DNA of 43,725 bases, from positions 1-43,725 of the forward strand of contig CAZNJA010000004.1 of the NCBI GenBank assembly GCA_964573245.1, written 5' to 3'. Below are positions 23,065-24,340 of this stretch, piece by piece (positions within the stretch are counted from its first letter, which is position 1; each line of letters starts with the position of its first letter). The position numbers and the translations under genes are program-made. Under the pieces are notes generated by a model that saw nothing but the letters and a program-made list of their open reading frames with translations, did no database searches and was not told where the DNA came from. The DNA comes from an uncultured bacterium (GTDB lineage: Bacteria; CAIJMQ01).

Positions 23065-23086
23065 TGCTTAAAAATTAAATATAGAA

Positions 23087-23247
23087 TTTCTTTCGGAGTG
23101 AGGAACACCGTGAAAATCGGTGGCAGTCCCGCTACTGTAAGAGGTGACGAAAGCTCTTAAAGTAAACCACTCTTCAATATAATGTTGGAGGGGAAGGTTA
23201 GAGCAAGTAGAATGAACCCTCAAGCCAGGATACTTGCCGAAAGGAAA
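23087..23247 (+). ncRNA. Cobalamin riboswitch
   Basis: GGAA-CACCG-TGAAAAT-CGGTG hairpin, CCCGCTACTGTAA, CCACT...GGGAAGG, B12-box AGCCAGGATACTTGCC; P1 TTTCTTTCGG/CCGAAAGGAAA; B12-related genes downstream. Confidence 0.92.
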
Positions 23248-23257
23248 AAATCGCAGA

Positions 23258-23350
23258 CTTCTTCGCGGAAAAGAAGGTGTGTTTTTTGTTGCATAAAACC
23301 TCCTCAAGCGAAGTTTGTCCTTTGCGAAACAAATTATAAACGGGGAGGTT
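23258..23350 (+). promoter_or_regulatory. Riboswitch expression platform: terminator-like hairpin plus anti-SD
   Basis: CTTCTT/AAGAAG stem (23258-23276) followed by GTGTGTTTTTT; AACCTCCTC(23297-23305) is complementary to the SD region GGGGAGGTT(23342-23350). Confidence 0.65.
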
Positions 23351-24340
23351 ATGATGAATCTCAAGGCTTTTAATAATGGTAAATCCTCAATCCCCATTGA
23401 TTTCTTCGAAATCAGAATATGGGGACAAGTCCGCAACCAGAAATCCCCATTGATTTCTTCGAAATCAGAATATGGGGACAAGTCCGCAACCAGAAATGGG
23501 TTTACCCCGTTAGAGATTAAACCAAGAGAGAATTTTACTCCTAAAAGCATTGTAAAAACTGATAAGAAAACAAAGACTTTTGCGATTAGTTACAGAAATG
23601 TCAAAAGACATTTCTTATCTCTAACGGGGTTTACTCTCATTGAGCTTTTAGTTGTTGTGGCTATTATCGGAATAATTTCTGCGATTCTTCTCCCCGCTTT
23701 GCATCAGGCAAAGGAAAAAGCAAGAACAGCCGTATGCAAGAACAATTTAAGACAATTAGTCATGTCTCTTGAACTATATTCTCAATATGAATATGGTTAT
23801 TATCCTCCAACATATTATTATCCTAATTTTATATCAGAGATTGGATGGGATTTTGCAATTGAGTATGATCCAGTTACTTGGGATGTGGCAAGTTGTCAGT
23901 TGGGAATTGTTGGAGAGACCTTACAGGAAGAAAAGATATTCGAATGTCCTTCAAGAATGTCTTTGCCATCAAGCGGCAGGTCCTTTACAGGATATGCTTA
24001 TAATGCCACGTATATCGGGGGAGGGTATTCGGTATGGAATGGACAAACAGATCCCCCTATAAAAACGACACAAGTAAGAAACCCTTCAGGAACGGTTCTT
24101 TTGGCTGATAGCGCTATATGGGCGGGTTCTTCTGGGGCCATTGGGAACAATTATCTTCGCGCTCCAGGTGACCCTAACTATTATTATGGGCCAAATGTTC
24201 ATTTTAGGCACAGCACTTTTGCGAACGCGGCTTTTTGCGACGGACATGTAGAAGCAAGAAGCGAAATGTATAATGTAACTACTCCTGACTCTTCTTTGGG
24301 AGATTTGTCCGAAGATGACAGTTTATACGATTTGCGATAA
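23351..24340 (+). CDS. Prepilin-type N-terminal cleavage/methylation protein with H-X9-DG motif (DUF1559-like), with an abnormally long insertion-expanded leader
   Basis: [31 protein letters not shown]...[34 protein letters not shown] 23351 follows GGGGAGG. Confidence 0.9.
23389..23494. repeat. Two identical tandem 53-bp units, each a 39-bp palindromic REP-like element (23391-23429, 23444-23482) plus 14 bp of heptamer repeat
   Basis: AATCCCCATTGATTTCTTCGAAATCAGAATATGGGGACAAGTCCGCAACCAGA x2; internal stems TCCCCAT/ATGGGGA and TGATTTC/GAAATCA. Confidence 0.9.
23504..23630. mobile_element. 127-bp MITE-like element with perfect 14-bp terminal inverted repeats, inserted in frame at the prepilin cleavage site
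   Basis: ACCCCGTTAGAGAT(23504-17) / ATCTCTAACGGGGT(23617-30); flanked by TT on both sides; GGGTTTAC is repeated 129 bp apart (23498, 23627); internal 9-bp hairpin AGAAATGTC/GACATTTCT (23594-23615). Confidence 0.8.

Follow-up and report, generated by a model that had tools for sequence, protein, structure and literature searches.

Selfish DNA that sits within coding regions is well known from inteins and from self-splicing introns with homing endonucleases, where the insert is harmless because it is removed after expression. GIY-YIG enzymes are among the proteins that serve as homing nucleases. REP/REPIN elements are hairpin repeats kept by a RAYT enzyme, whose single-copy gene is flanked by the repeats. 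MITEs, or miniature inverted-repeat transposable elements, of the Correia (CREE) and ERIC type show terminal inverted repeats (TIRs), a short duplication, no open reading frame (ORF), many copies and a longer partner. The locus described here lies in a 43,725-nucleotide stretch of an uncultured bacterium of the lineage CAIJMQ01 (contig CAZNJA010000004.1 of assembly GCA_964573245.1; below, the window). It is a prepilin-type DUF1559 gene that carries, at its prepilin-peptidase cleavage site, a 127-bp element with the end motif ACCCCGTTAGAGAT. Quite probably, a non-autonomous copy from a ACCCCGTTAGAGAT-ended family of very small mobile elements inserted here recently and is tolerated by way of the leader. 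The element belongs to a repeat family that recurs at pilin sites, the insertion is flanked by a 2-bp duplication and leaves the frame open, and in another genome identical ends enclose a nuclease gene.

Structurally, the element is a MITE, and its candidate partner enzyme is not a known transposase. Contrary to classical MITEs, this candidate is a GIY-YIG nuclease instead of a DDE transposase, and the autonomous unit would measure only ~281 bp. REP/RAYT systems share the layout of hairpin repeats around an enzyme gene, but RAYT is a Y1 HUH enzyme and REPs are extragenic, whereas the elements described here are often found in frame within genes. In contrast to inteins and introns, removal would be performed by a host peptidase at a rebuilt host site, and the insert lies upstream of the mature protein.

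Rickettsia palindromic elements (RPEs) are likewise small palindromic in-frame inserts read as an extra peptide, a likeness drawn by description (PMC10969869) and not by RPE sequence. The accessible part of that MITE review, which also names the Correia and ERIC elements, gives no cognate enzyme for RPEs, and the terms "pilin," "signal peptide," and "GIY-YIG" do not appear in it; in the present family, a GIY-YIG gene lies between identical ends. A further difference concerns the preferred site: here, this is where processing takes place, and the additional peptide would thus be lost instead of being retained in the mature protein. The Ssn proteins are single-domain GIY-YIG single-stranded DNA (ssDNA) nucleases with NTS/SRM hairpin repeats, and their authors themselves liken the layout to an insertion sequence (Chenal et al. 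2025, PMC11893778). According to the accessible part of that paper, a gene for a single-domain GIY-YIG protein of ~90 to 100 aa lies between its own repeats (NTS-ssnA-NTS), with hundreds of orphan repeats in the genome, as in the present family. Unlike Ssn, the elements described here show true TIRs, a 2-bp target duplication, and an ORF ending inside the repeat. The SRM motif HGTCWY..RNCYNB has 2 matches in the window genome compared to 1 to 5 in shuffles, 0 in the 33 paired elements, and 0 in the nuclease-bearing unit described below; the family is therefore not filed as an Ssn/SRM member. No description of insertion at prepilin cleavage sites was found in titles and abstract openings or in the MITE review, and the supplementary lists of PMC11893778 might include such proteins.

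STRUCTURE OF THE INSERTION

The 14-mer ACCCCGTTAGAGAT and its exact reverse complement form the two ends of the element, all 14 bp being complementary. With up to 2 mismatches allowed, the window contains no match besides these 2 (shuffles give a mean of 0.18, and 2 of 100 reach 2). The dinucleotide TT at positions 23502-23503 and again at 23631-23632 represents the 2-bp target duplication, and the repeat-family listing of the window contains the octamer GGGTTTAC repeated 129 bp apart. An ORF from 23315 to 24340 crosses the element without a stop, with 127 + 2 bp adding 43 codons. No ATG, GTG, or TTG is present in frame inside the element. The first-pass annotation had described this arrangement of perfect 14-bp TIRs, TT duplication, and 43 stop-free codons, and all of it is borne out by the window. 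The same holds for its statement that the right TIR codes for S-L-T-G plus the first base of Phe and rebuilds a G|FTLIE site downstream, which agrees with the translation (the bar marks cleavage sites and junctions here and below).

The ends together with a subterminal hairpin (AGAAATGTC/GACATTTCT) fold as ssDNA with -23.1 kcal/mol (z = -6.2). In an Rfam search, the best match of the 127-bp element has an E value of 0.29, below gathering. The closest copies are C17:9830-10114 (83% over 89 nt), C79 (93% over 44 nt), and C53 (90% over 39 nt) of the same genome. Both junctions are found in other sequencing runs: the left one in contigs of X2, X3, and X4 (23468-23604, up to 23634, and up to 23619, respectively) and the right one in a contig of X1 (23529-23797). 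The joined sequence 23503->23631 of an empty allele was not found in the contigs of X1 to X4, which carries little weight since contigs lose rare variants. One X2 contig of 1761 nt at depth 87 contains both end-plus-flank words 1.1 kb apart; it may represent either two separate copies or a larger element with cargo.

EMPTY AND FILLED ORTHOLOGOUS SITES

The genome of the window (G000) comprises 1,456,377 bp and is 93% complete with 38% GC. Orthologous loci in related genomes share the conserved upstream region and the downstream homocysteine methyltransferase gene. Two of them show an empty site, G001 with MMNLRIDKFRIQDLIGTG|FTLIE and G004 with (L)GKNRVG|FTLIE. The empty sites suggested by the first-pass annotation thus exist, and the 43 amino acids are not conserved protein sequence. 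In G003 (L016, C46), the same G|F spot is filled by another repeat, a mini-hairpin CCCCGCACC..GGTGTGGGG, and in G002 (L013, C16), a 95-aa leader consists of other hairpin repeats with RNGF duplicated. All four orthologous loci are open from the same start. The leader of this gene has thus been enlarged independently by unrelated hairpin repeats in G002 and G003.

THE REPEAT FAMILY

The motif ACCCCGTTAGAGAT shows 68 matches at up to 1 mismatch in G000, with 0 for the reversed control. The same-genus genomes contain 52, 88, and 34 matches, another genus of the family contains 5, and the distant genomes G015 and G018 contain 15 and 27. The ends are thus not unique, in line with the mobile family that the first-pass annotation had supposed. 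A looser pattern finds 97 ends in G000, forming 33 inverted pairs of 32 to 285 bp and 31 solo ends. Internally, these copies are highly diverse, and the window copy falls into one group with C17:9830-10114, C79, and C53. The pair lengths are 1 mod 3 in 21 cases, 0 in 6, and 2 in 6. Two of the three frames pass through the family ends without a stop, as TPLEI..SLTG or as PVR[DNS]..[IT]SNGV, and the third contains TAG or TAA.

A 2-bp flank repeat is found in 15 of the 33 pairs, compared to 15% in a mismatched-pair control. Position -4 of the flank is G at 30 of the 66 ends, position -3 is T at 57, and position -2 is T at 42. The repeat is TT in seven pairs: the four pilin sites described below, C5:32810, C13:31305, and C50:9414. 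The flanks of C5:32810 are ggtttt|..|ttaa (KKGF|KFLK in a nonpilin ORF), and those of C13:31305 are gggttt|..|ttac. The target word GGNTT|TA is therefore occupied outside pilins as well, which fits a target resembling the element end with its flank (CGGGGT|TT). The earlier idea that the ends mimic their target agrees with these two nonpilin copies, and the target may well be chosen for its likeness to the element's own end.

The family is not restricted to pilin genes, with many copies being intergenic or in frame within ordinary genes. At least 40 open codons in frame on both sides are found for 8 of the 33 pairs and 18 of the 31 solo ends. Such in-frame copies or ends lie at C3:10902-11819, C3:12721-13338, C22:7466-8065, and C22:9452-9913 of G000. 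Their hosts are RibF-, TruB-, and ferredoxin-reductase-like, labels read from translations only, and the ferredoxin-reductase-like gene carries two family copies.

INSERTIONS AT PREPILIN CLEAVAGE SITES

G000 encodes at least 22 prepilin N termini (21 by pattern plus GFTFLEIS), and four of these genes have a family copy abutting G|F: the window gene, C13:1165, C17:24154, and C53:8879. These copies measure 127, 153, 52, and 130 bp, corresponding to net inserts of 129, 155, 54, and 132 nt, and the original start is kept in frame in three of the four. The word GGNTTTAC occurs 301 times in G000. Fourteen of these words lie at prepilin sites, counting the 4 occupied ones, and of the rest, one was found to be occupied (C13:31305). 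Among long copies (at least 100 nt), the 4 located in coding frames are open in the frame used, and 16 of the 19 others have stops in all six frames. Across the genus, CTAACGGGGTTTAC occurs 22 times (controls, 0), with 7 occurrences before pilin N termini, 4 in G000 and 3 in G003. The preference for pilin sites and in-frame lengths proposed by the first-pass annotation stands with respect to the 4 occupied prepilin genes and the 21 pairs of length 1 mod 3.

Metagenome contigs were scanned for the right end followed by F-T-x-x-E codons, giving at least 114 stretches and 80 loci. These contain at least 69 distinct elements before at least 67 distinct N termini. Among the matches listed, to which the counts in the remainder of this paragraph apply, 83 of 84 with at least 24 aa downstream show a hydrophobic, pilin-like N terminus. 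A left end is found within 420 nt in 70 matches. The lengths of these are 1 mod 3 in 58 cases, 0 mod 3 in 9, and 2 mod 3 in 3; GGNTT[TC] forms the left flank of 46, and 62 keep the frame open from one end of the element to the other. For lengths of 1 mod 3, the frame is open in 48/48 copies below 100 nt and in 7/10 of at least 100 nt, the remaining 3 showing stops and an internal ATG. ATG-led leaders range from 12 to 96 aa, with a median of 32.5.

GIY-YIG NUCLEASE UNITS

A candidate parent of the family is found in G003. A 282-bp unit with ends identical to those of the ACCCCGTTAGAGAT family encodes only an 86-aa GIY-YIG nuclease, P0001. This protein matches PF01541 over residues 1 to 69 (E value of 1.5e-16), its nearest solved chain is 1zg2, a UPF0213 protein (E value of 6e-9), and it scores 28.8 bits on TIGR01453, below the cutoff of 56. 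The C terminus ..FLSLTG is coded by the right end, and the ORF has no stop of its own. The unit is located at aaaGGTTTT|..|TTACTTTTTTAGAA of a pseudopilin gene and continues in frame into FTFLEISLVILVIG..; the orthologue in G000 (KKTG|FTFLEISL) is an empty site. G018 contains a 280-bp copy that likewise encodes only an 86-aa nuclease, of 70% amino acid identity and with its C-terminal ..FLSLTG also coded by the right end; here, the final T of the end and the flanking AA form a stop. The statement of the first-pass annotation that no cognate enzyme is present holds for the window; a candidate exists outside it, in G003 and G018. Longer copies with the same TIRs, which had been expected to enclose a transposase, are found in these two genomes and enclose the GIY-YIG gene, not a DDE transposase.

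Relatives of the nuclease with 60 to 80% identity were found at 80 loci assigned to Omnitrophota, Planctomycetota, and many Patescibacteria. Both ends are present in 31 of these, at 231 to 301 bp, and a 2-bp duplication flanks 22 of the 31. The alignment retains the GIY, YIG, Arg, and Glu positions as well as the tail KRFLSLTG. The nuclease ORF runs in frame into a prepilin at four of the 80 loci (L084, L085, L088, and L091), representing three phyla. At L088 (Omnitrophica), a short family element (..CPVRND..ISNGA..) is itself nested in frame in the prepilin-fused GIY-YIG ORF. In the G000 copies C13:1165 and C56, the likeness to the G003 unit extends past the ends by 22 and 33 nt, respectively, as would be expected of derivatives that arose from the nuclease unit by deletion.

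A different end is found in 17 of the 31 nuclease-bearing copies, from the candidate phyla radiation (CPR; L094-L127). Where the AT of these ..GGGAT-ended units meets a G at the junction, the resulting ATG begins an ORF of 79 to >500 aa. The respective N termini look MurG-, exonuclease III-, topoisomerase I-, SMC-, and PheT-like, as judged from the sequences only. The nuclease TGA overlaps the rebuilt start as ATGA in most of the 17 units, and the left flank ends in ATGA in 12 (GTGA in one). Since GGGGT rebuilds Gly|Phe and GGGAT rebuilds ATG, the element seems to rebuild whichever first codon it interrupts.

Several other candidates were considered and rejected. None of the 6 small GIY-YIG genes of G000 is bounded by ACCCCGTTAGAGAT. 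Longer end pairs in G001 and G002 (~250 to 320 bp) are nested or adjacent noncoding copies without a nuclease ORF. IS982 elements have "AC" ends and a length of ~1 kb; an IS982-like partner is not indicated, with the NF033520 model over its cutoff in 0 of 21 genomes and one 19-bit hit in G004.

Small GIY-YIG genes are also found in other surroundings. In G000, C1:10068-10280, C14:13250-13456, and C23:234-437 lie amid duplicated tRNA 5' parts or beside a tRNA, and L061, L073, and L075 are likewise tRNA associated. These may represent a second target class for such mini-elements; the C14 region holds a run of N. The GIY-YIG gene at C27:11452-11706 of G000 has related but different ends (ACCCC[GA]CACC..GGTGCGGGGT, in a longer reading ACCCC[GA]CACCTT..AAGGTGCGGGGT) and is followed by CGGGGT-GA-ACCCCG, which corresponds to two ends back to back. 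This indicates a sister family in G000.

HOST GENE AND PROPOSED MECHANISM

The product of the window gene exceeds the cutoffs of TIGR02532 (26.2 bits; cutoff, 16.3), PF07963 (24.2; 21.2), and PF07596 (DUF1559) (31.3; 23.3), the N_methyl motif covering residues 93 to 114 counted from ATG 23351. The product also has the Gly(-1), Phe(+1), and Glu(+5) of a class III signal peptide substrate, along with the hydrophobic N-terminal helix. The Shine-Dalgarno (SD) sequence with ATGATG is common to G000, G001, and G002, with SD and a single ATG in G003, and the region of the cobalamin riboswitch is kept at 79 to 81% in G001 and G004. Riboswitch, SD, and ATGATG together fix the start of the gene, and because the element contains no in-frame start codon, the only plausible start yields the 93-aa leader. 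The features of the locus are listed in Table 1.

Table 1. Features of the prepilin-type gene and its insertion in the window
Feature	Position	Strand	Basis or remark
Cobalamin riboswitch aptamer upstream of the gene	23077..23255	+	RF00174, 81.6 bits (gathering, 31.5)
Shine-Dalgarno GGGGAGG, then ATGATG, gene start	23342..23356	+	Read from sequence
Prepilin-type DUF1559 gene, 329 aa from first ATG, stop included	23351..24340	+	ORF, profile hits
Predicted leader, 93 aa (92 from second ATG), last residue Gly(-1)	23351..23629	+	
Two perfect tandem copies of a 53-bp hairpin-containing unit in the leader	23389-23441, 23442-23494	+	
Original Gly-Phe codons GGG TTT, last two bases being the left TT copy	23498..23503	+	Comparison with empty sites
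MITE of the ACCCCGTTAGAGAT family, non-autonomous, 127 bp, without ORF of its own	23504..23630	+	
Left TIR, T-P-L-E-I in the frame of the gene	23504..23517	+	
Subterminal 9-bp hairpin AGAAATGTC/GACATTTCT adjoining the right end	23594..23615	+	ssDNA fold
Right TIR, codons S-L-T-G plus first base of Phe	23617..23630	+	
Rebuilt cleavage site GGG TTT ACT CTC ATT GAG (G|F-T-L-I-E)	23627..23644	+	Includes right TT

The 53-bp unit contains an internal hairpin, TCCCCAT..ATGGGGA, and the junction between its two copies is covered by contigs spanning 23415-23497 in X1 to X3. As a dispersed repeat it can be set aside: in G000 it is confined to this locus, with weak partial matches in G001 and G002. G000 also encodes a prepilin peptidase, detected by PF01478 (Peptidase_A24) with 80.2 bits at C77:3721-4092 within a 274-aa open frame. 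Downstream (3') of the prepilin gene lie separate genes for a homocysteine S-methyltransferase (PF02574; 24407-25303) and a pterin-binding protein (PF00809; 25322-26140). The riboswitch stands directly before the pilin-like gene, for which B12 control is unexpected; this could hint at a role in B12 uptake.

In the proposed mechanism, a full element would be a unit of ~281 bp encoding only a single-domain GIY-YIG nuclease of ~86 aa, whose ORF ends inside the right end. GIY-YIG homing and restriction enzymes cut with a 2-nt stagger, and such a cut would yield a 2-bp duplication. Whether the GIY-YIG protein makes this staggered cut, moves the elements, and serves non-autonomous copies in trans is evenly balanced. 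Insertion duplicates 2 bp, the target in the window being the Gly-Phe-Thr codons GGG TT|T AC of the prepilin-type gene, and the right end (..CTA ACG GGG T) with the duplicated TT rebuilds L-T-G|F-T. Since 127 + 2 bp equal 43 stop-free codons, translation from the conserved start should cross the insert. The precursor would be translated from 23351 or 23354 through the two 53-bp copies and the element, its hydrophobic segment would enter the membrane, and the A24 peptidase encoded on C77 would cut after the rebuilt Gly, with the 93-aa leader being discarded. This course of translation, membrane entry, and cleavage is likely. The prepilin leader might then offer a "cost-free" site, as the first-pass annotation put it. 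Cut sites rebuilt by related elements recur in many uncultured bacteria, so the host gene probably remains functional.

A wider reading can be offered only tentatively. The ~281-bp units with their 86-aa GIY-YIG protein are perhaps the smallest autonomous DNA transposons known, specialists for the first codons of host genes, which they would restore from their own last bases and the 2-bp duplication. Here, ..GGGGT would rebuild the prepilin Gly|Phe and ..GGGAT, in the CPR, the start codon ATG of housekeeping genes. In pilin genes, the nuclease itself would form the leader of the prepilin, and the prepilin peptidase of the host would set it free in the cytoplasm.

ALTERNATIVE EXPLANATIONS

A number of observations weigh against a tolerated insertion of a nuclease-driven family. 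With 93 aa, the leader is not short, compared to ~6 and 18 aa at the empty orthologous sites, and the left junction also reads G-F-T-P-L-E, a look-alike cleavage site. The 106 nt contributed by the 53-bp duplication are not divisible by 3, but the reading frame stays open. At C13:1165, the original frame is lost to a net insert of 155 nt, which leaves the old start stranded (MKKYQFSISNFQLLNAKGF..stop); an ATG further inside, preceded by AAGGAA, is needed there and gives a 32-aa leader. The 2-bp repeat is absent in 18 of the 33 G000 pairs, and G001 and G002 have many family copies, none of them at a pilin site. In G000, at 93% completeness, no nuclease gene with exactly these ends was found, and transposition of DNA by a GIY-YIG protein of this type is, to our knowledge, without precedent. 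As the metagenome pattern demanded F-T-x-x-E, the independent evidence in that survey is limited to the hydrophobic stretch, the open frame, and the left flank.

The long leader, the 106-nt duplication, and the lost frame of C13:1165 are also what speaks for decay, in which the insertion and the 53-bp duplication inactivated the gene or force the use of another start, the open frame being merely tolerated; the 3 of 10 long metagenome copies with stops and an internal ATG point in the same direction. This is unlikely, as the absence of an in-frame start in the element leaves the conserved SD and ATGATG behind the riboswitch as the first start, and ~78 inserted codons are stop free in a genome of 38% GC. 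The orthologue in G002 keeps its 95-aa leader open, and 55 of the 58 pilin-site copies of length 1 mod 3 among the matches listed are open, whereas 16 of the 19 long copies of G000 outside coding frames have stops in all frames. A co-opted insert, serving either as a hairpin in the mRNA through which translation is adjusted downstream of the riboswitch or as a leader peptide with a role of its own, would agree with the strong fold of the ends and the subterminal hairpin, with the cobalamin riboswitch before the gene, and with the independent expansion of leaders in G000, G002, and G003. The sequences inserted in these three genomes are unrelated, however, the distinct pilin-site elements (at least 69) differ widely inside, the family occurs in unrelated genes and spacers, and the element is without an Rfam family match, making co-option quite unlikely.

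It is very improbable that the pilin-site copies descend from a single insertion, or from very few, which gene conversion across the conserved N-terminal codons then carried from one paralogous pilin gene to the next, and that they do not reflect target choice. Prepilin N termini do share long identical stretches, and the window copy and C53 belong to one subfamily, but the four G000 copies represent at least 3 sequence types, and their left flanks keep the different Gly codons GGG, GGT, and GGA. Nonpilin GGNTTT targets (C5:32810 and C13:31305) are also occupied, and the variety of elements and N termini in the metagenomes speaks against a common origin as well. That no insertion took place and the 43 amino acids are an ancestral conserved part of the protein has the open frame in its favor and nothing more; this idea is refuted by the empty sites in G001 and G004 and the 68 end copies in the genome.

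IMPLICATIONS

If true, tolerated insertion at such sites would give selfish DNA a third means of residing in coding sequence without harm, beside introns and inteins, with the insert borrowing host signal-peptide cleavage or rebuilding a start codon. It would give small orphan GIY-YIG proteins (UPF0213-like and Ssn-like) a testable candidate role, the movement of tiny TIR elements. It would also account for the unusual length of some prepilin leaders and for "duplicated cleavage sites," both of which confuse pilin annotation in Omnitrophota, Planctomycetota, and the CPR. Finally, it predicts prepilin peptidases that tolerate leaders of ~90 aa, even with a folded nuclease domain, which would be useful for pilin biology and protein engineering.

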